Below are positions 2,173-51,274 of a stretch of 64,000 nt of DNA, one piece after another (within the stretch, counting starts at the first letter, position 1; the number at the start of each line of letters is the position of its first letter). The DNA comes from Candidatus Woesebacteria bacterium. Lineage in GTDB: Bacteria; Patescibacteriota; Microgenomatia; UBA8517. The DNA lies in the NCBI GenBank assembly GCA_016700095.1, contig CP065002.1:432463-496462 (forward strand). Reading direction: 5' to 3'. The notes beneath the pieces are model-generated. The model made no database searches, had not been told where the DNA came from, and saw nothing but the letters and a program-made list of their open reading frames with translations. The position numbers and the translations under genes were made by a program.

Positions 2173-4185
2173 CTAATTACTATTGATCCTTTGCAATACA
2201 CGTCCGGCTGTTAGGGCGGCGAGATGATACAAAATAAAAGCGCTTGTAACATCACTTGCTCCTTCCGCAGTAATTTTCTGATTACTTAAAGCGTATGACA
2301 TCAACCAATCCGCATCGATTTCAACTAAAGTTGTGCCCTCGTCAACCTCAACTTTGGCGCTACGTACCGCTTGGGAATCGTACAACGCGTGTTCACCGAT
2401 TGTAAACCCTTTCTCTAAAATAATGTCGGTTGGAACTCCATCTACATTTTTCCCAACTCCTGTAATTTGCACCGCGCCCGTACGGACAAAATACAATTTT
2501 CCGTTTGCCGGTGAACCTTGGTGATAGAGGACTTGTTTTCTGTCAAACTGTCTTACGGTAAGTGGGGAATCAGGATCTGATTCGTGTTGATTAATGGCAT
2601 CATTAATAATTGCAGAAAACTTATTAGGATCGTAAAAATTTGACAGAGGGTTGTTGTCTACAATCTTGTCGTGTAGCTCAACGGGATTGGGAGAACTGGT
2701 ATATTTTGATATTTCACCAAGCGTTTGTACCATTGTGTAGGGGAGTTGTGTAAGAAGAATATGTAGTGCTTTTGCTTCTTTTGATTTAATTTTTCCTGAG
2801 AATAGTTCATTAGCCAAAGCGGGGTAGCTAAGAATATTTCTAATTGCCTCACCCCTAATCATCATAAATTCGGTTTCACTGGTTGTTGTGACGGTTGCGG
2901 TTGCATTTTTTTCCTCGCTCGACAAAGCCTGAAACGCACCGACAATTCTACCAGGTTCTATGTTTCTTGTTATTACTTGTTGATTCTGATATGTAGCGGA
3001 AACGTTAAGAGGAGGATTTTTGTTCCCATCCTTTTTATTAAAGGGGACAACGTAAAGATTGTCGTTATTTTCTCCAGCTGTTGTTAAGGTGGTATTTTCA
3101 TTTACCGTTTCGTAACTAACTCCGCTGTCAAGAGCAGATAAAGATTCAACCAACAAATAATTTGATAGCGCTCTGAAGGCGTCTTCATTTCCGTGTTTTT
3201 TGTCTGCGTTCAATAGTGCCGAATCGGTAAGTATACTTCCAACTACCCGTGAGCGAAATCCGGTAGATGTCGGACTTTTTGTTGTTCGCACTTTGCCTGC
3301 TTCCTCCAATAAACTTTTTTCTTCATCGGATAATGATTTATCGTTGTCAATAACAAGCTGGGCTAATTTTTCATCAGGACTAATACCTTGTTCAAGAGCA
3401 CTCCTGACTGCTGAGGCGTAATCATTTTTAAGTTTAGTTAAACTTCGTTTGTTGGTTTCGGCAATTAGTTTCCCAAGCTTTATTCGAACTAAATATTTTG
3501 CCAATTTTGCATCCGATAACGCGCGGAATTCATCTTCGCTACCTGCGTGAACATAATCGTGTACAAATTCAGCGATATAAAGATTAGCAAATCCGACACC
3601 ACCTTGTTGAGTGAGGTTAATATTACTAAGAGCTTCGTTACCAATTTCGCTTGGTTTAGTATGTCCTTCGTCGTCGAAATCCCGCATCGATGAGGCAAGA
3701 TAAACAGCCAGCCCCGTATAGTAATCGTTATTGTCACCAAGAATAATACTCGCCGTTTCGGGATCGTAACCTTTTTCGGCGATAAACTCGCCTGATTTTC
3801 TGGCCGTAACTGCTTCTTTGAATCCACCATGTACAAATTCATTTTTATCGGAAAAAAAGACTTCCGAATTAAGGCCATAACCACTTATTAATTCAAGCAC
3901 GCGGGTTCTTTCGTCGTCTGTCAGATCGGAATTGGTAAATATTCTTAAATCGTGATCATTTCCACCTTTTTCGATAGGAGTTCCAACTTCGTTTATAGTG
4001 TGATATTTATCTCCCATAATTTCTTTGAGCTTTGGTTTTACCTCTTTGCAAAACGTGTGTCTTTTCGTGATACGATCTTGTTGAGAGTCTTTTAGTAATA
4101 ATACCGCCATTGTGTCCGTTTTTTTAGCTGGAGGTTGTTCGGGGTTTTGGACAGTGGGTATAGTACTATGTGTATCTTCGGTCAT
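2173..4185 (-). CDS. Large cytoplasmic protein with ~380-aa N-terminal region of unknown function and two tandem C-terminal cyclic-nucleotide-binding (CNB/cNMP) domains
   Basis: Two CAP/PKA-R-like segments: '…IVGAFQALSSEEKNATATVTTTSETEFMMIRGEAIRNIL' and '…FTIGEHALYDSQAVRSAKVEVDEGTTLVEIDADWL'. Both carry the GExAL…R(S/A)A(T/K)V signature. ATG start. Confidence 0.65.
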   Translation of the reverse strand: MTEDTHSTIPTVQNPEQPPAKKTDTMAVLLLKDSQQDRITKRHTFCKEVKPKLKEIMGDKYHTINEVGTPIEKGGNDHDLRIFTNSDLTDDERTRVLELISGYGLNSEVFFSDKNEFVHGGFKEAVTARKSGEFIAEKGYDPETASIILGDNNDYYTGLAVYLASSMRDFDDEGHTKPSEIGNEALSNINLTQQGGVGFANLYIAEFVHDYVHAGSEDEFRALSDAKLAKYLVRIKLGKLIAETNKRSLTKLKNDYASAVRSALEQGISPDEKLAQLVIDNDKSLSDEEKSLLEEAGKVRTTKSPTSTGFRSRVVGSILTDSALLNADKKHGNEDAFRALSNYLLVESLSALDSGVSYETVNENTTLTTAGENNDNLYVVPFNKKDGNKNPPLNVSATYQNQQVITRNIEPGRIVGAFQALSSEEKNATATVTTTSETEFMMIRGEAIRNILSYPALANELFSGKIKSKEAKALHILLTQLPYTMVQTLGEISKYTSSPNPVELHDKIVDNNPLSNFYDPNKFSAIINDAINQHESDPDSPLTVRQFDRKQVLYHQGSPANGKLYFVRTGAVQITGVGKNVDGVPTDIILEKGFTIGEHALYDSQAVRSAKVEVDEGTTLVEIDADWLMSYALSNQKITAEGASDVTSAFILYHLAALTAGRVLQRINSN

Positions 4186-4473
4186 GTTTTGATTATAAAG
4201 GTACCCGGGTGTAATTACAGATTCAAAATATGTAACTTTTAGGTAGTTAGCTAATAACCTTAACTAATTTATTCAAAGAGGTGTGATATGGTGTTTACTA
4301 AAATTACGTACTTAATACTGCGGTTTAGTTAAAACAAAGAACATACTTTTTAAATTAATAAAAACTCATGAGATGAATTAATGATCGAACAATTATCCGG
4401 TAACAAGAACTTAATGATATTCGATTAACCCTTTCCAAATATATGTTTTGTTTTAGAAGTAGTAGAATTAGGT

Positions 4474-12820: not shown

Positions 12821-13678
12821 TTAATAATATTCGATTACCAACTGTGGTCTGTTGACTGAACCTTTTTGTTCAGAGGATATGAAATATACAAAATCTCCCG
12901 ATTTGTTTTCACCTAACGTTTCTTTCCCAAAATGAATTCTGAATTGACTTTGACCCCTGCCATTTGCAAAATCATCTCGCACGGCGTTAGTTACATCTGC
13001 TTCTTTCCAGCCGATATTTTTACTGGTTGAAATAGTAGCAAAATTGCTGACAAAAGCCGGCAGGGAATAGTCCTGGGCATCCAGACTATCTCCGTAGTTA
13101 AGGTGGTCCAATCTTAAATCACCAATTGTTGCGTAGGGATTTTCAGTAGTTTTAATTTGATAAAGCCTTAAAGAAGCCGCTTTAACAGTAACGCCTGTCG
13201 GAATAACTGTTAGATCAAAACTGACAAAACCGCGGGTAACACTCACACTATCTCGACCTATACGAATTTCTTTGTCGGAATAACCAATACCGTCGCTTGC
13301 CATGTAGCCGTCAAGATCTGCTTGTCCTAATACGATTTTGGTAACGGTCGGTTTTTCCGGAGCTTGGGTTAAGGGTATTTCCGTCCTGGTCGGTTTTGGT
13401 TGGGGCGTTAACCCTTGGGTTACCACTTCCACGGCGTCAGATTTTTCATCTTCTGTAATCCGTGCGTTTTTTCCTATTTGGGGTGCAGTTAACCTTCCGT
13501 AAGTGAATGACGCATAGGAGATGAGAATGATTACGATGATAATCGGGGTAATGATCAATATTTTGGAAAATTTGTTTTTCAATGTAACTTTGGTAGCCAT
13601 GGGCTTTGTTGTGGTTTCTAAATTCTGCGAAGAACTTTCTTTTTGAATATCCTGCGGTATATTGGATATATTGTCCAT
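12821..13678 (-). CDS. Hypothetical N-terminally membrane-anchored extracytoplasmic protein
   Basis: One TM segment near the N-terminus (ILIITPIIIVIILISY) followed by a ~220-aa soluble region. No recognised domain. Confidence 0.5.
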   Translation of the reverse strand: MDNISNIPQDIQKESSSQNLETTTKPMATKVTLKNKFSKILIITPIIIVIILISYASFTYGRLTAPQIGKNARITEDEKSDAVEVVTQGLTPQPKPTRTEIPLTQAPEKPTVTKIVLGQADLDGYMASDGIGYSDKEIRIGRDSVSVTRGFVSFDLTVIPTGVTVKAASLRLYQIKTTENPYATIGDLRLDHLNYGDSLDAQDYSLPAFVSNFATISTSKNIGWKEADVTNAVRDDFANGRGQSQFRIHFGKETLGENKSGDFVYFISSEQKGSVNRPQLVIEYY

Positions 13679-13814
13679 TGTCTAATGATAATATTATTCG
13701 AATTACCTTTGCAAATTCTTCCTGTCTAAAGCAGGGAAAAATTAACCAGTGAAATACTTACTTTTATTAACGATCTACACTACTTTCTAAACGATACACA
13801 GAAAACAAGAACAG

Positions 13815-14207
13815 TTAATAGGGGCGAAAATTAATATATAAAATTATTGAGAGTAGTAGTACGGATGTAAAAACAAGCAGAAGAACATAGCCATAAAGCG
13901 AATAAGCATATTTTTTATATTTCCAAAGACCGATCGCAAAGACAGTGAGAAATCCTGTTGATATAACCAGCAGGGCATGATACAGCTTTCTGGTTACATT
14001 TCCCATCGGAAAAGCAATATAGAAATCGTAATTAGCATCCGCTGTTGGTGTGAAGAATTGATACCATCTGTGGAGCAATAAAACTAAGGTTAGAATAAAA
14101 GTATAGACGGTAATTTTTTTTCTAACTTTTGGTTTAGCCGAATGCCATATCAAAGTAAAAGTTCCGATTAAGATCGCGGCAAAGGAAGAGGCAAAAAGTC
14201 TAAACAT
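13815..14207 (-). CDS. Hypothetical integral membrane protein (4 predicted TM helices)
   Basis: Hydrophobic segment pattern only. Confidence 0.45.
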   Translation of the reverse strand: MFRLFASSFAAILIGTFTLIWHSAKPKVRKKITVYTFILTLVLLLHRWYQFFTPTADANYDFYIAFPMGNVTRKLYHALLVISTGFLTVFAIGLWKYKKYAYSLYGYVLLLVFTSVLLLSIILYINFRPY

Positions 14208-14211
14208 CTAT

Positions 14212-14799
14212 TTATAATAGCACTTTGTTTTGGGCAATTGCAGTAAGCAATGTATCTATTTGAGTAAATAAATATTTTTTTCCTTTCGAATTTATCAATG
14301 TATAATCCGCCATCGCAATCGGTCCACCTTTCTCCAAATTTTCGATTTCAGCGATATCACGCTTGGCTGCTTCTTCTTTTGTAAAACTTCTGAATCGTGA
14401 TTGAGGATCGTTAATTGCTTTTCTCTCACTTATTCTTGTATATCTAACTTGCGGTGGTGCCCATACGGCTACAACGATGACCGTGTCCTTAAAATACTTC
14501 TTAATTATCTTATATTCAGTGAAACTATAAAGTCCGTCGGCTACGACATTGTTTTCCTTTAACATATTGTCGATCACGGGAATAATGCGCTTTGCCAAAA
14601 CACCCTTCCCGTGTTTTTCCCGTAAACCTTCCCTGATTTCTCTTTCAACCTTTTCCGACGGTATGAGATTGCGTTTCTTGACTTCATCAAGGACTACTTG
14701 ACCGAAACGGACAAATTTAAATCCCTTTCCCACTAAATAATCGGAGACGGTACTTTTGCCGCTTCCAGGCATGCCGGCAACACAAATAACTTTATGCAT
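14212..14799 (-). CDS. P-loop nucleotide/nucleoside kinase-like protein (adenylate-kinase/dephospho-CoA-kinase fold)
   Basis: Walker A 'VICVAGMPGSGKSTVSDYL' at the extreme N-terminus and a ~195-aa size. Confidence 0.5.
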   Translation of the reverse strand: MHKVICVAGMPGSGKSTVSDYLVGKGFKFVRFGQVVLDEVKKRNLIPSEKVEREIREGLREKHGKGVLAKRIIPVIDNMLKENNVVADGLYSFTEYKIIKKYFKDTVIVVAVWAPPQVRYTRISERKAINDPQSRFRSFTKEEAAKRDIAEIENLEKGGPIAMADYTLINSKGKKYLFTQIDTLLTAIAQNKVLL

Positions 14800-14882
14800 A
14801 TGTATATATAATTCCTCTTACATAATAGTGTCAATGCGTAATTACCGTAAATTGCCGATTTGTTGTATAATTAAGTATTCAA

Positions 14883-15404
14883 ATGTCCACAAAATTGGGG
14901 ACTATCTTTGTAGGTACTAAGCTTAAATCACATAAAAAAGCTCAAGGATCTTCTTTTGCCGGTGAAGACAGTATCAAACTTGATCGCCTTGAAAAAGTTG
15001 CCAACCATATAATTTTTGAAGTACAAACAGTTCCTATTATGGGGTTTATCAAAGGTGGAGATAAACTAACCATTTGCACAAACCGTATCGCGATAACCCG
15101 TCAGACGATGTTTTCTGATGAGGAACGGCCGATTGCGATCGAGAATATAACATGCGCCAGTGTTTATCGACATTTAATGTATGCTTCATTAAATATCGAC
15201 ACATTCGGTGTTCCCAAACCGGAACCGATAACGCGTTTAAAAATCCAAGACGCAAGACTTGCCAGACGTTATATTTTGGCGTTAATCGAATGTAAAAAAG
15301 CGGGGATAGATTTAACAAAATTTGAACTTGAAGAATTAAGAGAGCGCTTAAAAAATTTGGGTGCAGTGCGTTTTACTTCGGAGGAAAAATACCACGAACT
15401 CTAG
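14883..15404 (+). CDS. Hypothetical protein
   Basis: ATG start and coding-like composition. No domain recognised. Confidence 0.4.
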   Translation: MSTKLGTIFVGTKLKSHKKAQGSSFAGEDSIKLDRLEKVANHIIFEVQTVPIMGFIKGGDKLTICTNRIAITRQTMFSDEERPIAIENITCASVYRHLMYASLNIDTFGVPKPEPITRLKIQDARLARRYILALIECKKAGIDLTKFELEELRERLKNLGAVRFTSEEKYHEL

Positions 15405-15409
15405 AATAA

Positions 15410-15526
15410 GATGGTAGATGGTAGATGGTAGATGGTAGATGGTAGATGGTAGATGGTAGATGGTAGATGGTAGATGGTAGATGGTAGATGGTAGATGGTA
15501 GATGGTAGATGGTAGATGGTAGATGG
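15410..15526. repeat. Heptanucleotide microsatellite (GATGGTA)n, ~16 perfect copies ending in a degenerate GATGGGA
   Basis: Read directly. The antisense 'IYHLPST'n ORFs in the track are artefacts of this repeat. Confidence 0.95.
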
Positions 15527-15563
15527 GAGTGATTTTTAGATAGAATTGATTCATAATCAAAAT

Positions 15564-16163
15564 ATGTATTCCGATAGTCCGAAAGTTCCATATAGTTTCG
15601 TCAAAATACTATTTATATATTTAGAAGGAATTTTTACATCGTTACTATTTTTAATTTTGGTTGGTCTGACATATGTGGTTCTTACGGGCAATGAAATGGA
15701 AAATCTTATCCTTTTGTGGATTTCTTTTACTCCGTGGCTGGCACGGGAATTACGCAATAGCTATACGTTTGATGCAACTGACCTTGTTGCCTTTCTACTT
15801 GTTTGGGGAGCGGTGATAAGTGTTTTTAGCGAATTGGTTTTGCGAAAAACAAGGTTACAAAAGTATATCCCGATAATACTATTTGTTTTTGGCACGATCT
15901 TTTTCCCGACAACTTTAATCGTACTATCTTTACGTTTTGGAATTATTTTTGCACTTTTGTTTTTGGGTGTACCATTTGTTATTTACACTTTCTGCATGCT
16001 TATGCTTTTAGTATTTGCTGTTGCCAGGAGAAGGCGTGTGCAAAATAAGGCAGTTGAGAAAGTTATATCACTAGAAAGTCAAATACCATCCACCAACGAG
16101 TCGAAATTAGAAGCTGATTCTACCAACGCTCCCGATTCACAACTTACCAGGCACTGGGATTAA
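15564..16163 (+). CDS. Hypothetical integral membrane protein (≥5 TM helices, C-terminal cytoplasmic tail)
   Basis: The ORF-track start at 15546 is TTG. The first ATG is at 15564 (MYSDSPK…). Several hydrophobic stretches. Confidence 0.5.
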   Translation: MYSDSPKVPYSFVKILFIYLEGIFTSLLFLILVGLTYVVLTGNEMENLILLWISFTPWLARELRNSYTFDATDLVAFLLVWGAVISVFSELVLRKTRLQKYIPIILFVFGTIFFPTTLIVLSLRFGIIFALLFLGVPFVIYTFCMLMLLVFAVARRRRVQNKAVEKVISLESQIPSTNESKLEADSTNAPDSQLTRHWD

Positions 16164-16226
16164 CTAACCTGTATACGATTTTGGTTCTTCACAAAAAATA
16201 CAAAAAGATGATAATTTAATCAATCC

Positions 16227-16691
16227 ATGTTGAAAGTAAAGCCATTTAAACAAGAAACAGGTTATTGTGGTCCGGCGTCTCTTAAGATTGTATTGGATTA
16301 CTATGGTATTGAAGTAACAGAAAAAGAATTAGTTGATTCTACCGATTGTTCGGTGCAGATGGGTGTCGAAGCCGGAAGACTTCTTGAGGCAGCGTTGGAA
16401 TACGGTTTGGAAGGGTATATTAAAGATTTTGCCGATTTAACCGATATTAAAAATCAAGTTGTTGACAAACTCAGACCGGTTATTGTAGATTGGTTTTCCG
16501 AGGATGATGGTCATTATAGTGTTGTGGTAGATATCGACGATGAAAATATTTATTTACTCGATCCGGAAATGGGACACGTCAGAGCAATGCGACATACGAA
16601 ATTCTACCGCGTTTGGTTTGACTTTCCGGGTGATTACATTAAAGCAAAAGACGATCTTACAATCAGAAGGATGATAGTTGTATATAAATAA
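16227..16691 (+). CDS. Peptidase C39-like (papain-fold cysteine peptidase) domain protein, standalone
   Basis: N-terminal 'ETGYCGPASLKIVLDYYG' matches the C39 catalytic-Cys motif (xCGxAxLxMxxxYYG). Downstream His/Asp candidates are 'GHYSVVVDID' and 'GHV'. Confidence 0.6.
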   Translation: MLKVKPFKQETGYCGPASLKIVLDYYGIEVTEKELVDSTDCSVQMGVEAGRLLEAALEYGLEGYIKDFADLTDIKNQVVDKLRPVIVDWFSEDDGHYSVVVDIDDENIYLLDPEMGHVRAMRHTKFYRVWFDFPGDYIKAKDDLTIRRMIVVYK

Positions 16692-16701
16692 ATTCAAATA
16701 C

Positions 16702-17748
16702 ATGACACAAGACCCTGGCGGTAATAACAATTCTCACGATTTTCCCAATACGGTTGGAATACTCTATAGCGAAGTTAAAAGAGAATACTTTCCTACAGAA
16801 GATCAATACTTAACTGAAAAAGACGCCCTTCACGATGCTCAAGTGATTGCGACATATCTTGATAAACTTGGCTTAAAAACCTATCTTTACCCTGGGGTTC
16901 CGGATGTAATAAATAGTCTGAAAAAGGACAAACCGGACATGGTAATTAATTTGGTTGGCTCGGTAAATGGGCAGGAATATTTGTCCTCGACGATTCCGGG
17001 AATGTTGGAAAGTCTCGATATACCATATACCGGGGCGGGAATTCTGGGAGAGTCACTTGCGTATAACAAGTTTTTAATTAAAGAGCTTCTCAAAAGCCAC
17101 GGTATTCCTGTTCCAAATTTCCAATTATTACCTGATATTGCAACTCCGCTTAGTAGTGACCTTCGGTTTCCGCTAATTTCCAAATTAAACGAAATCCATG
17201 GTGGGGTAGAAATTACCAACGACTCGGTTTCAAATGATGAAAAGCACCTTCGTGAACGCGTGAAGTATTTAATTGGGACGTACAAACAGCCGGTTGTAGT
17301 CGAAGAGTTCATTGCCGGAAAAGAAGTAACTGCGATGTTACTGGAAGGATTGAACAAAAAGGTTTATATGGCAGAAAAAGTATTTAAAGATTATGGTAAT
17401 CCTAACGCGTTTGCAACTTTTGAAGATCAATGGTTGGAGTCGGGTAAAGATAGTTACCGATATGAAAAATTCAGTGACAGTAATTTATCTCATCTTGTTA
17501 AAAAAGCATTTGATGTGACGAGAATGAGTGATTATGGAAAGTTCGATGTGAGAATTGACCAGTCGGGCAGGTATTATTTTATTGATAGCAATAGTAATCC
17601 TGCCTTCGGGCCGAAAGAATTGTATTGTGCACTATCGCTTATTCTTGATTTATATGGAATAAACTTCGGCGAGATCGTTAAAAGATTGTTAATGAACACG
17701 ATGAGAGATGCCAGAGGTAAAGAGAAACTTTCTCCGGTAGAGGAGTAG
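16702..17748 (+). CDS. D-Ala–D-Ala-ligase-family ATP-grasp enzyme (ddl or Ddl-like amidoligase)
   Basis: Ddl N-domain '…MVINLVGSVNGQEYLSSTIPGMLESLDIPYTGAGILGESLAYNK…'. ATP-grasp C-domain '…VVVEEFIAGKEVTAMLLEG…FDVRIDQSGRYYFIDSNSNPAFGP'. The ORF-track start at 16678 is TTG. The first ATG is at 16702, 10 nt after the C39 stop. Confidence 0.65.
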   Translation: MTQDPGGNNNSHDFPNTVGILYSEVKREYFPTEDQYLTEKDALHDAQVIATYLDKLGLKTYLYPGVPDVINSLKKDKPDMVINLVGSVNGQEYLSSTIPGMLESLDIPYTGAGILGESLAYNKFLIKELLKSHGIPVPNFQLLPDIATPLSSDLRFPLISKLNEIHGGVEITNDSVSNDEKHLRERVKYLIGTYKQPVVVEEFIAGKEVTAMLLEGLNKKVYMAEKVFKDYGNPNAFATFEDQWLESGKDSYRYEKFSDSNLSHLVKKAFDVTRMSDYGKFDVRIDQSGRYYFIDSNSNPAFGPKELYCALSLILDLYGINFGEIVKRLLMNTMRDARGKEKLSPVEE

Positions 17749-17973
17749 TCTAAAATAAATCGTAGGCTATAAATTCTTCATACCGTCTTTTCGTAAGAAA
17801 TTCTCATTATTGGAAGTTGGTATGAAATATTGCGGTGTTAAATAGAGCACGGGTTGGTACGGCAATGATGCTTTGTGTGCAAAAAGTTTGTATGAACGTG
17901 CTTGGTGAAAAATTATTCTTAGCAATTGACAAGCAGAAGTTAAAGGAGAAAAATAAGACTCTGATTTAAATAC

Positions 17974-18438
17974 ATGGATTATTACAATTTGCCTGAAACA
18001 GTAACTTTTCTTGTTAGTCAAAAAGCGTTTATCGTCGAAAAAGGCAAATTACTTCTTCTTCGGTATCCCATCAAACCCAATCGTGAATATAGCGGATATT
18101 GGGCTCTACCGGGAGGGTTACTTGAAATCGATGAAAAATTAGATTCAGGATTACTGCGCGAAGTTAAAGAAGAAACGGGCCTTAGTGTTGAGATTGGAAA
18201 ATTGGTAGCGGTTGGGGATTCGTATTTTGAAAATTTTGTTTTTGCAAACAAAAAAGTAACAGATGTCAGAATCGTGCAAATTGGATATGAATGCACATTG
18301 GTCGGGAAGATAAAAGTTATAATTAGTGATGAACACATGGCTTTCAAATGGGAAAAGCTTGATAACCTTAAAGACAATAAATTTACCCCCGACTGCGTGG
18401 ATTTGATAAACAAATACACCAGCTTACACACGGACTAG
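17974..18438 (+). CDS. NUDIX hydrolase
   Basis: Nudix box 'GGLLEIDEKLDSGLLREVKEETGL'. Confidence 0.8.
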   Translation: MDYYNLPETVTFLVSQKAFIVEKGKLLLLRYPIKPNREYSGYWALPGGLLEIDEKLDSGLLREVKEETGLSVEIGKLVAVGDSYFENFVFANKKVTDVRIVQIGYECTLVGKIKVIISDEHMAFKWEKLDNLKDNKFTPDCVDLINKYTSLHTD

Positions 18439-19964
18439 CTTTCGAAATCCGCTAGATTTATGTTAACTGGAAAGTTTTGTCCTTGTGCACCCAGTTTTGC
18501 ATTATGAGCTCTTTGTTCTTTGTAATGCCAATGGAGTAGATGGCAGCTTGTAAACCCGTAAACCCTTTTTTGATCACCTTCACCAACTACAAGCAAAAAA
18601 GCTCTTGGTGATACAGTCTGAGTTTCAGGTGATGTACTTAAACCAATATTTCCTTCTAGATAAGTAGTGTCTAGCTCAATAACACCGTTACTGACATTTA
18701 GCGGTATCGGGTCGACGTCAAAATTCCATTTGAAATTATCATATCCCGTTTTTTCATCTAAAGTAGCCGGGTAGAGTCTGGCAGTTGATGCACCCGGTGA
18801 TCCGGTAAAAGTATATTTATCAGACAGCTCTCCTTTTATAAATGGATCATCCCAAAAACTCATCTGTGATTCGAGAGGGCTTGCCATATTTTCGTCCCCA
18901 AATACAGATCTATGTACGACAAGTTCCTCTTGCGGAGATAAAGGGCTTTCACCACTAAAATAATATTTCCAGTCACTCAAGTGGTGGGATAACAAGTGTT
19001 TCTGCGATTGCGACAACTTCCAGAGCATAATATTGCCTGAGCCAATGTTTTCGGTTCGGGGCATTGTAGGATAGGATGTCCAGTTTTCGAGTCTTAGGTA
19101 ATAATTTAACAAATGATAATTATTGTAAAGTGTATGATGTGTTTGTTCGTGGATTAATCCCGTGTCGACGACTTTTCCTGAATCAGGATCTTTTGCTAAA
19201 AATCCTCCGGAAGTCGGATTATATGTTTTGGGGATTAAGTATCTTGCATACACATCTTTCGAATTGTGAATTGAAGTTACTGATCCATAAGGAGCACCGG
19301 GATAATTTTGTAACCACTGCTCATCAACGACGATGACTTTAATTGGATGATTACTGTTATCCATTCTTATACCATTTATTCCGTTTTCGGGTCTTGTTCC
19401 GGCAAGGAGTTTATTTGGTAAAGCTCTAAAATGATATTCAAGAAACGGTAATAGTTGTTCTCCATCTGCATTTAATCCATCCTGCCACATTTTAAAAGCC
19501 TCATGACCAACAAATATTTCCGGAGTCCTAACACTATTTTCAGGTAAATCTGTTTCCTTGCGACTATTAATGTAGATTTCTAGTTCGTGTGGTTTGAGAG
19601 GCGTTTTCCAACCAAGCGTGTGAACAAAAGTGTCCACCCCCTCACGGCTGACGAAATGTGTTTCCTGGAGATTATTAAATTCTTTCGATTCGGTTGTGTA
19701 TCTAGTGTCAGGAGTAGCCGTCGGTAAGATCAAGCCTTTATCGGCATTTGCAACAGGGGCTGGAGTTGGAAATACGGTTTCGTCACCACACGCCGCTAAA
19801 ACAACTGCTGCACCAACAGAAGGTAAAAATTGCAAGAACCTCCTTCTTCCTGGGTAAGGTACCCCTTGTTGTATAAGTTTCTTTCTTTCGCCTTCGGGGA
19901 CATTAAGAATGTTTTCTTCAGTAATATCTGCCATGTCTATATTTTGATTTAATATCTTAACCAA
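18435..19964 (-). CDS. Tat-signal lipoprotein, putative secreted zinc metallopeptidase-like (HExxH: 'LIHEQTHH')
   Basis: Twin-arginine motif 'PGRRRFLQF' plus lipobox 'LAAC'. One HEQTH motif. The track start is TTG and the first ATG (MADITEEN…) is at 19934. Confidence 0.5.
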   Translation of the reverse strand: MVKILNQNIDMADITEENILNVPEGERKKLIQQGVPYPGRRRFLQFLPSVGAAVVLAACGDETVFPTPAPVANADKGLILPTATPDTRYTTESKEFNNLQETHFVSREGVDTFVHTLGWKTPLKPHELEIYINSRKETDLPENSVRTPEIFVGHEAFKMWQDGLNADGEQLLPFLEYHFRALPNKLLAGTRPENGINGIRMDNSNHPIKVIVVDEQWLQNYPGAPYGSVTSIHNSKDVYARYLIPKTYNPTSGGFLAKDPDSGKVVDTGLIHEQTHHTLYNNYHLLNYYLRLENWTSYPTMPRTENIGSGNIMLWKLSQSQKHLLSHHLSDWKYYFSGESPLSPQEELVVHRSVFGDENMASPLESQMSFWDDPFIKGELSDKYTFTGSPGASTARLYPATLDEKTGYDNFKWNFDVDPIPLNVSNGVIELDTTYLEGNIGLSTSPETQTVSPRAFLLVVGEGDQKRVYGFTSCHLLHWHYKEQRAHNAKLGAQGQNFPVNINLADFES

Positions 19965-20058: not shown

Positions 20059-21057
20059 TTATGCACCATGTGCAATTCTAATATTGTCGGCTAAATTTTC
20101 CAAAGCCTTTTGTTTCATTCCATCAATGTCCCTTAGTGGTTTAATATAGCCCTCATTTACTCCTGTACTTGCTATCATTGCCACAGCTTTTCCTGAGTCG
20201 TTAACTACTAGTGCACCACTAAAACCCGTTGTGAACGGAATGCTCGTTTTTATTACTTCACCTTCTTGCCTGGCTGTAAATGTCTTGGGTGAAACACCAT
20301 TGCTTTTTCTCGCGGCTTCTGTATATCCTATTGTGTGTAGATTTTCACTGGGATTTGGCACCCAATTAGTTGCAATGTCGCTAGTTGGGAACGGAGCGAA
20401 AGAAATAGCGTTAACGTCTTCCATTTTTATGGCAATAACAGCTTGATCAGATGGTTGATAAGCTTCCGTTGAAGAATCGTATTTTTTATCGACCGGGTAA
20501 GTGCTACTAAAGCCTATAAATAACGGTGTTACGGGTAAGTTTAATCCGGTGTGGATTTGATTCAAGTTAGTCTGTGCTTGGTGGGGTGGAAGGTCCGTTA
20601 TATTGTTAGCGGCGTGTCCTGCGGTCAGGATGTATGCAATGTTGTTTTCACTATCAACTTCCAGCAAAGTTGCGGTAGAAAATATTGGACTTTTTCCCTC
20701 ACCCATATGCATTTCCAGTCGAAAAGTAGATCGTTTCAAATTGACAGGTATTTGATCCAACTGTTCTTCAAATTCTTGCGGCGTCATTGCTTCCGAAGTT
20801 GCCGATATTGACGCTTGAGTTGTTGGAACAACGTCTTCGGCTGTTATTACAAGTCCCGGTGATGGTGTAATTTTTCTACCACACGCCGTTAAAGCAGTTG
20901 CTGTACCAACAGAAAATAAGATTTTCAGTATCTCCCTTCTTCCTGGTTTAGATACCCCTTGTTGTATAAGTTTCTTTCTTTCGCCTTCGGGGACATTAAG
21001 AATGTTTTCTTCAGTAATATCTGTCATGTCTATATTTTGATTTAATATCTTAACCAA
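20059..21057 (-). CDS. Tat-signal lipoprotein, trypsin-like (S1/chymotrypsin-fold) serine peptidase
   Basis: 'GRREILKIL' plus lipobox 'LTAC'. His motif 'YILTAGHAANN'. Ser motif 'GFSGALVVNDSG'. The N-terminal 35 aa are identical to the preceding gene. The likely ATG is at 21027. Confidence 0.55.
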   Translation of the reverse strand: MVKILNQNIDMTDITEENILNVPEGERKKLIQQGVSKPGRREILKILFSVGTATALTACGRKITPSPGLVITAEDVVPTTQASISATSEAMTPQEFEEQLDQIPVNLKRSTFRLEMHMGEGKSPIFSTATLLEVDSENNIAYILTAGHAANNITDLPPHQAQTNLNQIHTGLNLPVTPLFIGFSSTYPVDKKYDSSTEAYQPSDQAVIAIKMEDVNAISFAPFPTSDIATNWVPNPSENLHTIGYTEAARKSNGVSPKTFTARQEGEVIKTSIPFTTGFSGALVVNDSGKAVAMIASTGVNEGYIKPLRDIDGMKQKALENLADNIRIAHGA

Positions 21058-37989: not shown

Positions 37990-38316
37990 TTAGTGTGAAA
38001 TGGGTTCAAGTTGTAGATGATTTTCGATTCTTTCAACTCTTTCGAGTAGTCGAATGAACTCTCTGTCTAAGAAATTAATTGCTTTATCGAGCTTTCTGTC
38101 TAACTTATCTATTCTTTGGTTTAGTCTCTTTTCCAAATCAATGATCTCTTTATGGACAATTTTTCCAGTTTCCACTTGAACAATCTTTGTAGTTTCGTCA
38201 TGCACAATCTTTCTCGTTTCCGCCTGAACAATTTTGGGAGTTTCCGTTTGTACAATCTTAGTCGTTTGTTCTTGAACAATCTTTGCTATCTGATTAAGAT
38301 CTGTCTTTGTTAACAT
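37990..38316 (-). CDS. Hypothetical coiled-coil protein with 8-aa tandem repeats (ETxKIVQ/H)x6
   Basis: 'KIVQTETPKIVQAETRKIVHDETTKIVQVETGKIVHKEI', from a 24-bp DNA periodicity (ACAATCTT core). Confidence 0.45.
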   Translation of the reverse strand: MLTKTDLNQIAKIVQEQTTKIVQTETPKIVQAETRKIVHDETTKIVQVETGKIVHKEIIDLEKRLNQRIDKLDRKLDKAINFLDREFIRLLERVERIENHLQLEPISH

Positions 38317-41444: not shown

Positions 41445-41465
41445 TTGGCAGGGGTGGAGGGAATC
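41445..41465 (-). repeat. 21-bp direct repeat of the tRNA-Trp 3' end (att-like scar)
   Basis: 'cttggcaggggtggagggaatc' at 41445-41465 equals 41556-41576 (tRNA 3' acceptor/T-stem plus 2 nt). Confidence 0.8.
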
Positions 41466-41557
41466 CCTTCGACACCTTTTACTTGCTCAGGGTAAACTTC
41501 TCATCCCTGCAATATTAATAACCAAAAATTCCAGATCTACGACCGGGAATTATTACT

Positions 41558-41631
41558 TGGCAGGGGTGGAGGGAATCGAACCCCCAATAGCGGTTTTGGA
41601 GACCGCTGTTATACCATTTAACTACACCCCT
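41558..41631 (-). tRNA. tRNA-Trp (anticodon CCA)
   Basis: Reverse complement AGGGGTGTAGTTAAATGGTATAACAGCGGTCTCCAAAACCGCTATTGGGGGTTCGATTCCCTCCACCCCTGCCA. 7-bp acceptor, anticodon loop CUCCAAA, GGTTCGATTCC T-loop, encoded CCA. Confidence 0.9.
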
Positions 41632-41635
41632 ATAT

Positions 41636-41800
41636 AACAAACAACAAACAACAACCAACACCCAACCTTCCAGCAAACAACAACCAACCCCCAACAAACA
41701 ACAAACAACAACCAACACCCAACCTTCCAGCAAACAACAAACAACCCCCAACAAACAACATACAACAACCAACCTTCCAACAAACAACTTCTTTAGGTTG
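41636..41800. repeat. CA-rich tandem repeat (~57-bp unit, ~2.5 copies, built from ACAAACAAC motifs)
   Basis: 'aacaaacaacaaccaacacccaaccttccagcaaacaaca…' occurs twice plus a partial third copy. The antisense 'VVCCLL' ORF is an artefact. Confidence 0.85.
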
Positions 41801-41940: not shown

Positions 41941-42651
41941 TTATTGTGCTATTACTTTTCCGTCAAATTTCATTGTTTGAAATACGGTGTTAACAAATTT
42001 TTCGGCTTCTGCGGAGTACTTGTAGTAGTAAACGTTCATTAAAAAATAATCATTTGTCACAGGGTGTGTGAGCTGATAAATTGAGAATGCATGTCCATCC
42101 TTAAATATATGCAGAGTACTATCCCATTCATATCCGCCGTAGTTATACTTATTATTTACTGAAAAATCGAGGTTTGTGTCATCCCCACTTCTGCCACCCT
42201 CTGTTGGCTTTATCTCAATAATATTGTTACTGAAAGTACAGGAAAGGTATTTATTCACCGAATACTCCTTGTTAACTAATTCGCATATTGGGGGAATATC
42301 AAGTGTGAATGACAACGAATCCGTGAGATTATAAGAAGAAATAAACTGATTATCTTTTAGGCTATATTCATTAACCTTTGGAATCGTTTTGGTGGGATAG
42401 GGTTTTGGATATTCCCATCCATTTGATGTGATGCATATTTTAGGATCATTTGGGTCACCTTTGAATGTATGACCCTTTTCAGATAAACAATCTTCGTATG
42501 AAGGTACGCTTGGAGGGCAGTACTTGGTATGAGTGGATCTGCAAATTTCGTCAGATTGGTTTATTCTTCGCGTGCTTATAACAAATAAACTAATGAGGAT
42601 AAACGCTACGGTTGAAGCAAGTAATAATAAATTTCTTCGGAAAACTTTCAT
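41941..42651 (-). CDS. Hypothetical secreted/membrane-anchored Cys-containing protein
   Basis: N-terminal signal/TM 'LLLLASTVAFILISLFVIS'. No domain recognised. Confidence 0.45.
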   Translation of the reverse strand: MKVFRRNLLLLASTVAFILISLFVISTRRINQSDEICRSTHTKYCPPSVPSYEDCLSEKGHTFKGDPNDPKICITSNGWEYPKPYPTKTIPKVNEYSLKDNQFISSYNLTDSLSFTLDIPPICELVNKEYSVNKYLSCTFSNNIIEIKPTEGGRSGDDTNLDFSVNNKYNYGGYEWDSTLHIFKDGHAFSIYQLTHPVTNDYFLMNVYYYKYSAEAEKFVNTVFQTMKFDGKVIAQ

Positions 42652-48633: not shown

Positions 48634-48813
48634 CTTGAGAATTATAAGCTGTGGTGGTGGGTAGATGCAACCGTTTATGTAACGATGTTAATTTTGACAG
48701 TTATTTCAATTTATACAAAAAATATTCTTGGAAAAGTAGTTTATTTTTCATGCTTTATCTGGACCACAAATATTGTATTGGTCAAACAAATCGGCCAGAT
48801 AATCCACGAAAAT

Positions 48814-50955: not shown

Positions 50956-51274
50956 AAATCTATTCTATGTGAAATAGTCAAATTCGACAAAACGTATTAC
51001 TTTAATTTTTTACTCCCAACCCTGAAACCTGAGTTATCGCGTAAATTTTTTTCTCTAATTAAATATTGGTAATTGGTTGACATATTTTTCAGCATACTAA
51101 AATCCAAAAAAGGTCGAGTAGACATACCGCAATAACAAAGTTGAAAAATAGTGTTGTCTAACCGGGTTGGTCAAACATTAGCTATTCTTGTCTTTCGCAC
51201 ACGACAATTATTTGAAGTGTCTTTGTTATACTCTTTTAAACATTATAAACTAAGGTTATACTGGGCTGCACAAT

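Follow-up and report, generated by a model that had tools for sequence, protein, structure and literature searches.

The 64-kb window analysed here (the whole stretch of 64,000 nt; all positions are positions in it) contains a single array of the heptanucleotide GATGGTA, located at 15409-15526 between the co-directional genes IPM62_02135 and IPM62_02140 of a Candidatus Woesebacteria bacterium. With moderate confidence the array is interpreted as a young, slippage-made and probably hypermutable tract, which fills the space between the stop codon of IPM62_02135 and the -35 position of a predicted leaderless promoter of IPM62_02140, and which is neutral or at most weakly modulatory. The tract is not a demonstrated on/off switch. 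Intergenic heptamer arrays, to which it belongs, are a widespread class of obscure function; that they are so numerous is ascribed to slippage favouring 7-nt units. The features on which this interpretation is based are the following.

14883-15404, plus strand: IPM62_02135 (QQS39389), PH-like domain protein of 173 amino acids (homologue search, AlphaFold2, Foldseek)
15409-15526, plus strand: heptanucleotide array of 16 perfect GATGGTA units followed by GATGG (Tandem Repeats Finder, shuffles, direct reading)
15522-15528, plus strand: terminal variant unit GATGGGA at the junction of array and promoter (direct reading, one-mismatch probe match)
15529-15534, plus strand: predicted -35 slot GTGATT, 3/6 matches to TTGACA, 17 nt upstream of CATAAT (proposed from the alignment of 21 promoters on their -10 boxes)
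15541-15546, plus strand: putative alternative -10-like box TAGAAT (aligns with GATAAT of the relative L009 when the array is collapsed)
15552-15557, plus strand: predicted -10 box CATAAT, 6 nt before ATG 15564 (the modal gap genome-wide, implying a leaderless-type promoter)
15564-16163, plus strand: IPM62_02140 (QQS39390), orphan polytopic membrane protein of 199 amino acids (NCBI start, hydropathy)

The GATGGTA array and the promoter of IPM62_02140

Tandem Repeats Finder detected one array of period 7 with 16.9 copies, 100% matches and no indels (score 236). Read directly, the stop codon TAG of IPM62_02135 (15402-15404) is followed by AATAA, by 16 perfect GATGGTA units (15410-15521), by GATGG, by GAGTGATTTTTAGATAGAATTGATTCATAATCAAAAT and by the ATG at 15564, which is the start of IPM62_02140 in the NCBI annotation. 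The distance from the end of the array is 19 nt to the TTG at 15546 and 37 nt to the ATG at 15564. An earlier, sequence-only reading of this DNA had described about 16 perfect units after the stop of the 14883-15404 gene, close to the two potential starts at 15546 and 15564, in non-coding DNA directly upstream of a gene for a polytopic membrane protein of 5-6 spans; all of this was confirmed, the predicted spans here being approximately 4-6, and given its length and perfection the tract is inherently liable to slip, as had also been proposed.

A probe of two units, when two or fewer mismatches were allowed, matched 17 times in the window, 16 times inside the array. Dinucleotide-preserving shuffles gave a mean of 0.21 matches, and none of 100 shuffles reached 17; an origin of the array by chance is statistically impossible. 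Elsewhere in the window Tandem Repeats Finder found no simple sequence repeat (SSR) with more than 3.4 copies of a unit of 9 nt or less. With its 16.9 perfect 7-nt copies the tract has the long, perfect, slippage-prone SSR that characterizes contingency loci, and it has the head-to-tail 7-nt copies in non-coding DNA that characterize intergenic heptanucleotide (STRR-like) arrays. By analogy with other long perfect heptamer tracts its length is very likely hypermutable.

The G-rich strand of the array is the sense strand of both neighbouring genes. On this strand TAG occurs in all three frames, hence the array is non-coding there. Because the minus strand of the array contains no stop codon, two minus-strand open reading frames (ORFs) run through it (15348-15560 and 15373-15591, 70 and 72 amino acids), which encode (YHLPSTI)n. 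They were rejected as coding sequences since they exist solely by virtue of the stop-free repeat and overlap both real genes. Similarly, (YHLPSTI)n was rejected as the precursor of a graspetide or other RiPP (a peptide made on the ribosome and then modified) connected with the ATP-grasp gene located further downstream: it is on the wrong strand and contains no acidic residue or lysine for a cross-link, Ser and Thr alone being insufficient.

Promoter architecture was analysed in the 70 nt upstream of 55 long ORFs. Hexamers matching TATAAT in at least five of six positions, with A2 and T6 required, were counted as -10-like, and their distance to the start codon was scored. The modal position was a gap of exactly 6 nt, which occurred in nine of the 55 genes (approximately 0.36 expected from a background of 0.0065 per position). 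In total, 21 of the 55 genes had a -10-like hexamer 3-12 nt before the start, as against 3.6 expected. The Shine-Dalgarno cores GGAG, GAGG or AGGA were found at Shine-Dalgarno distance in only three of the 55. From the peak of -10-like hexamers 6 nt before the start and the scarcity of Shine-Dalgarno cores it appears that many genes of this organism are expressed as leaderless or near-leaderless mRNAs. Examples of the pattern in the window are at 4186-4200, 14866-14882, 15552-15563, 48634-48650 and 50956-50970. The homologous loci of relatives have the same habit of placing the -10 box close to the start. A literature search for leaderless translation in the Candidate Phyla Radiation (CPR) found no directly relevant report.

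The layout of IPM62_02140, CATAAT-CAAAAT-ATG, can be compared with TATAAT-CAAAAC-ATG at gene 2173-4185. The -35 element is weakly conserved genome-wide, T being present at its first position in 15 of the 21 promoters aligned on the -10 box. The predicted core promoter of IPM62_02140 extends from 15529 to 15557, and transcription would start at about 15564. The array ends 2 nt upstream of the predicted -35 slot and spans approximately -38 to -155 relative to this start. A generic scan for consensus sigma-70 promoters detected no site in the spacer between the two genes at its threshold, so the promoter call rests on the genome-specific positional analysis. Use of the alternative box TAGAAT would move the -35 slot into the last unit of the array, whose sequence is the same at any copy number.

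The tract of a contingency locus is expected where a unit change alters expression, in the ORF, in the spacer between -35 and -10, or in the 5' untranslated region (5'UTR). Here, in silico, the predicted promoter and the start of the leaderless mRNA lie downstream of the tract, which is therefore outside the predicted promoter spacer, the transcript and the ORF, and neither the core promoter nor the mRNA should be affected when units are gained or lost. The sequence-only reading had placed the tract in a promoter or 5'UTR where it would modulate expression, a location at variance with these predictions. It had also named the lack of promoter elements overlapping the tract as one of two findings that would tell against a switch; none was predicted to overlap, the -35 slot and CATAAT both being downstream, although this result is in silico only. 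The proposed phase-variation switch is supported in part: the repeat is slippage-prone and gene-proximal, but by these predictions it is not placed to switch expression.

We propose that replication slippage expanded the heptamer where this closely spaced gene pair has its sole dispensable stretch, namely in the few bases between the stop codon of IPM62_02135 and the -35 position of the IPM62_02140 promoter. IPM62_02140 would be transcribed as a leaderless mRNA from CATAAT. With units gained or lost, the -35/-10 spacing, the transcript and the reading frame would then stay as they are, as would the sequence next to the -35, which consists of GATGGTA units in every case; this would hold with either -10 box. 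Changes of array length should have no phenotype, or should at most adjust promoter strength slightly by way of the upstream DNA. A long perfect SSR near a gene start does not by itself make a switch. Whether unit changes matter depends on how the promoters of the host are built, and here they appear to be leaderless, the -10 box being 6 nt before the ATG.

Several points weigh against this interpretation. The promoter has been assigned by computation alone, its -35 is a poor match (3/6), and the second -10-like box would put the -35 slot inside the last repeat unit. Retention of a 118-bp insertion in a streamlined genome of 1.27 Mb could mean selection. The product of IPM62_02140, a fast-evolving membrane protein, is of the kind usually controlled by contingency loci, and tracts upstream of a -35 element can modulate promoters, as the TAAA tract of Neisseria meningitidis nadA does.

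Origin of the array and heptamer arrays in other genomes

Both flanking proteins are singleton clusters among approximately 15 billion proteins. Exact-protein look-ups for IPM62_02135 and IPM62_02140 found no other assembly of the locus, no second strain with this locus was present in the databases examined, and the 28-nt right flank of the array had no match in JGI metagenomes. The only relative possessing both genes, locus L009, has amino acid identities of 63% in the upstream protein and 31% in the membrane protein. Its intergenic spacer of 35 nt is free of tandem repeats and has a GATAAT box shortly ahead of the start. The window spacer (159 nt, or 41 nt without the array) aligns with it once the array is collapsed. 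GTGAAT occurs twice in L009, at 547-552, which is the slot equivalent to the predicted -35 (16 nt before the -10 box), and at 557-562 (6 nt before the -10 box). In 14 loci containing homologues of the upstream protein, the co-directional downstream spacers were 23-121 nt long, and no SSR of 12 nt or more was found between the genes. A metagenome scan with a profile of the upstream protein yielded 11 loci, none of them with an array or a homologue of the membrane protein. Being absent from all known relatives, whose spacers are short, the array is a lineage-specific expansion, and its perfection makes a recent origin probable. The idea that it marks the edge of an inserted cassette of the membrane-protein, C39 and ATP-grasp genes, suggested by loci L001-L004 with a directly following NUDIX gene, was rejected: by the evidence of L009 the PH-like gene and the membrane-protein gene were neighbours ancestrally, and the similarity of the two NUDIX proteins is no more than generic.

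A search for four exact GATGGTA units was carried out in one genome per species; the source genome is not among these representatives. It returned 118 stretches in approximately 75 unrelated genomes of many phyla, including Verrucomicrobiota, Bacteroidota, Rhodohalobacter, Gemmatimonadota, Planctomycetota, three Saccharibacteria and a Nitrosocosmicus archaeon. No Microgenomates were found among the species-representative matches. The complete genome of the isolate Tumebacillus avium contains an array of 20.9 copies. Several GATGGTA loci per genome were detected in, for example, Haloferula sargassicola, Verrucomicrobiia Tous-C4TDCM and metagenome-assembled genomes of Rhodohalobacter. Arrays whose units differ by one base (GATGGTG, GATGGGA, GATAGTA, GATGGCA and others) often stood beside the GATGGTA arrays, as did inverted partner arrays, and many of the GATGGTA matches were at contig ends. 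In Verrucomicrobia they commonly start 6-10 nt from the start codon of a divergent gene. By a crude ORF model approximately 60 of 80 evaluable arrays were intergenic, the flanking orientations being +/+ in 21, +/- in 16, -/+ in 10 and -/- in nine cases; some thus lay between convergent genes. As arrays were present in every orientation class, they have no consistent link to promoters.

In 828 kb around the GATGGTA arrays of unrelated genomes, Tandem Repeats Finder detected 52 further arrays of period 7, whereas the other periods between 3 and 14 together gave 13. Period-7 arrays, GATGGTA included, recur across many phyla and strongly outnumber other periods, which adds to the unexplained heptamer bias of bacterial microsatellites. 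One Saccharibacteria locus (L063, 114-7415) has at least eight different heptamer arrays in 8 kb, and other loci of these CPR bacteria also carry heptamer arrays (L072, 2646-2783; L036, 2916-6926). Some array pairs of Saccharibacteria are roughly complementary when G-T wobble is allowed (e.g. GCAGTGA at 3590-3620 and CTCATTG at 3664-3687), a hint at RNA hairpins.

According to the summary of Mrazek 2007 given in PMC4692102, heptamers are over-represented among bacterial SSRs, and the footprint of DNA polymerase was proposed as the cause. Intergenic GGGAATC and GGGGATT arrays differ strongly between close relatives and have no demonstrated role (PMC4692102). Beggiatoaceae, cyanobacteria and Bacteroidetes possess TAACTGA arrays, and TAACTGA heptamers located just upstream of start codons were proposed to be binding sites of a regulator (PMC4679880). 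The sequence-only reading had argued that SSRs are rare in small genomes and that this one should therefore be functional. The argument is weak because heptamer arrays are favoured by mutation (Mrazek 2007, as summarised in PMC4692102) and are found in other small CPR genomes, and because the GATGGTA arrays of other genomes lie in all intergenic orientations.

Known repeat systems and alternative explanations

SSR switches acting between -35 and -10 include the TA tract of Haemophilus influenzae hifA/B and the poly-C/G tracts of Neisseria opc and porA. The TAAA tract of nadA is located upstream of the -35, and its effect on the promoter requires regulator sites flanking the tract. With the window array these systems share an SSR beside a sigma-70-type promoter of a membrane or surface gene. 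Unlike the tracts of hifA/B, opc and porA, the window tract is wholly upstream of the -35 slot, and an inverted-repeat search made no nadA-type flanking regulator sites evident.

The closest mechanistic analogue with a 7-nt unit is (ATCTTTC)n of H. influenzae hmw1A/hmw2A. Like the window array, it is an SSR built of heptamers, has a comparable length (11 or more units occur naturally) and lies upstream of a surface-related gene; its copy number can slip (PMC12721329). The hmw tract is transcribed as part of the 5'UTR, pairs with a G-rich arm and forms a hairpin processed by RNase III (PMC12721329), whereas in the window the start is predicted downstream of the tract, there is no such arm and the fold is weaker than in shuffles. 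Expression from the hmw-type rheostat varies in inverse proportion to repeat number. For 15380-15600 the predicted RNA fold was weaker than that of shuffled sequences (z +1.74; 195 of 200 shuffles folded at least as well), and none of the inverted repeats in 14000-17500 involved the array; the long hairpin of a transcribed repeat with a complementary arm was thus not found. The sole distant match of 14 nt (16084-16097, two mismatches) was rejected as a hairpin partner, being at chance level. The complementary strand of the array was unstructured in ViennaRNA, and no Rfam family was detected in 13000-18500 at E <= 1.

The intergenic heptamer arrays of Calothrix and Nostoc (STRR), Xanthomonas (GGGAATC) and Nostoc (GGGGA(T/C)T), described in PMC4692102, and the TAACTGA arrays (PMC4679880) resemble the window array in being intergenic, head-to-tail, perfect copies of a 7-nt unit. 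Their length and sequence vary among relatives and their role is unknown or only proposed, as for the window array. Differences are that the known families are multi-copy in a genome and often form inverted pairs or compound arrays, whereas the window array is solitary in 64 kb and has no partner, and that the window array belongs to a Woesebacterium, the species-representative matches for GATGGTA having included no Microgenomates. Unlike GGGAATC-type repeats, the window unit is not rich in G3 and is not expected to form a G-quadruplex (G4). The G-quadruplex option of ViennaRNA predicted none for the array; its unit has only GG, not the G3 or longer tracts of G4-forming heptamers.

The tract could still be a contingency or rheostat locus that acts from upstream of the core promoter, so that IPM62_02140, and perhaps the C39 and ATP-grasp genes, would be expressed at differing levels between cells. 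Each step of 7 bp would shift the upstream DNA by 7 bp and rotate it by approximately 240 degrees, altering the phasing of RNA polymerase with a putative upstream site, or alpha-CTD contacts. The nadA tract, upstream of its -35, is a precedent. A long perfect tract stands directly before the predicted -35 of a membrane-protein gene, the putative target is a lineage-restricted orphan, the absence of the array in relatives would make it a recent gain at exactly this gene, and hmw1A/2A provide a heptamer precedent (PMC12721329). We consider this explanation unlikely, though not negligible. The promoter-proximal 100 bp are identical at any copy number, no operator-like or inverted-repeat element exists beyond the array, where the 3' end of a coding gene is located, and the GATGGTA arrays of other genomes have no preference for the promoter side. 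A more far-reaching version is that this is the first simple-sequence contingency locus described in the CPR, a hypermutable heptamer that tunes a leaderless promoter from upstream, in a stochastic or graded manner, and diversifies the expression of an orphan membrane protein, possibly also of the C39 and ATP-grasp genes. This is decidedly unlikely; if true, it would provide expression diversity in an episymbiotic bacterium, for which the cell surface decides attachment to the host. A literature search found no paper tying Patescibacteria to phase variation in this sense. A functional switch at this site would be new, though it is not the reading that the evidence at present favours. Were the tract to modulate expression, contingency loci would be shown to be in use in ultra-small CPR bacteria.

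It is improbable that the array acts at the RNA level, transcribed as the intercistronic part of a bicistronic mRNA from the promoter of IPM62_02135 and serving post-transcriptionally as an RNA-binding platform or processing site. A generic scan found no intrinsic terminator in the array or in the spacer between the genes, which are co-directional and adjacent also in L009, the sole relative with the pair; TAACTGA repeats near start codons are proposed regulator sites (PMC4679880), and in hmw the repeat is part of a transcript that RNase III processes (PMC12721329). However, the region is less structured than shuffled sequences and the array, unlike the hmw repeat, has no complementary arm. 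IPM62_02140 has a -10 box of its own at the canonical leaderless distance of this genome, and no Shine-Dalgarno motif is placed for internal initiation. Moreover, TAACTGA sets consist of 2-6 copies within a few nt of the ATG, as opposed to approximately 17 copies ending 37 nt away in the window. Very improbable is a DNA-structure or protein-binding element, whether a two-tetrad G-quadruplex of the sense strand, a read-through insulator or an iteron-like array. GG does recur every 7 nt on the non-template strand, and the G-rich heptamers GGGAATC and GGGGATT form G4 in Xanthomonas and Nostoc (PMC4692102), but the array has only G2 tracts with 5-nt loops, no G4 appeared in the ViennaRNA model, and the motif is absent from relatives. 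A spacing of 7 bp is too tight for typical dimeric DNA binders. An artefact of assembly or polishing can hardly be credited. The chromosome was assembled from a metagenome, repeats of this type often break short-read assemblies, and many GATGGTA matches are at contig ends; against this, the periodicity of the array is perfect, unique sequence surrounds it on a contig of 1.27 Mb, and isolate genomes contain comparable arrays of up to 21 copies, such as that of T. avium. The exact copy number could be one unit off; the existence of the tract is not in doubt.

Flanking genes and other features of the window

Both flanking genes are on a contig of 1,274,238 bp. The further features of the neighbourhood are listed below.

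14866-14871, plus strand: TATAAT, -10-like box of IPM62_02135, 11 nt before the ATG (direct reading, -10 scan)
16227-16691, plus strand: gene of a stand-alone C39-like cysteine peptidase (Pfam Peptidase_C39, E 5e-12; NCBIfam matches), preceded by a GATAAT box of its own, 11 nt from the ATG
16678-17748, plus strand: gene of a Ddl-like ATP-grasp ligase (Pfam Dala_Dala_lig_C, E 6e-11; NCBIfam D-Ala-D-Ala ligase models match below their cut-offs)

IPM62_02135 had no Pfam or NCBIfam match. Its family comprised 49 homologues, whose named members are all Woesebacteria or Patescibacteria, and it is apparently an unannotated family restricted to Patescibacteria. The AlphaFold2 model (pLDDT 77) consists of a helix, seven strands and a helix, and its top Foldseek matches were PH domains, including the bacterial structures 3dcx and 3hsa. 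In the predicted fold a PH-like domain comes first and two helices follow.

IPM62_02140 likewise had no Pfam or NCBIfam family match. An exhaustive HMMER search of 1.84 billion representative proteins returned four matches, the protein itself and three distant proteins. Its hydrophobic segments (residues 11-45, 69-94, 101-125 and 109-156) correspond to approximately 4-6 membrane spans. The C39-like gene and the Ddl-like gene overlap by 14 nt, and a NUDIX hydrolase gene comes next. IPM62_02140, the C39-like peptidase and the divergent Ddl-like ligase may form a small envelope or peptide-processing module. In L009 the homologue of the membrane-protein gene is followed by a different gene on the opposite strand, unlike in the window, where the C39-like gene follows.

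Other repeats were noticed elsewhere in the window. An A/C-rich low-complexity repeat at 41636-41791 (57-nt unit, 2.4 copies, 97% identity, with an AACAACC-like sub-period) abuts the tRNA-Trp gene (41558-41631, minus strand) in the gap to the gene at 41941-42651. A direct duplication of 21 nt, TTGGCAGGGGTGGAGGGAATC, is present at 41446-41466 and 41558-41578; it copies the 3' end of tRNA-Trp at a distance of approximately 112 nt from the gene, and may be the remnant of an integration (att-like) event. At 38151-38285 there is a degenerate tandem repeat of 24/48 nt (approximately five copies, 70-75% identity, unit ACAATCTTTGTAGTTTCCGCTTGA), which may encode a repetitive peptide on the minus strand. 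The adjacent minus-strand genes 18435-19964 and 20059-21057 have a common start and upstream sequence, CACTAACCACTTGCC-TTGGTTAAG, and are apparently paralogues in tandem, with a TTG start and with conservation of the 5' region.

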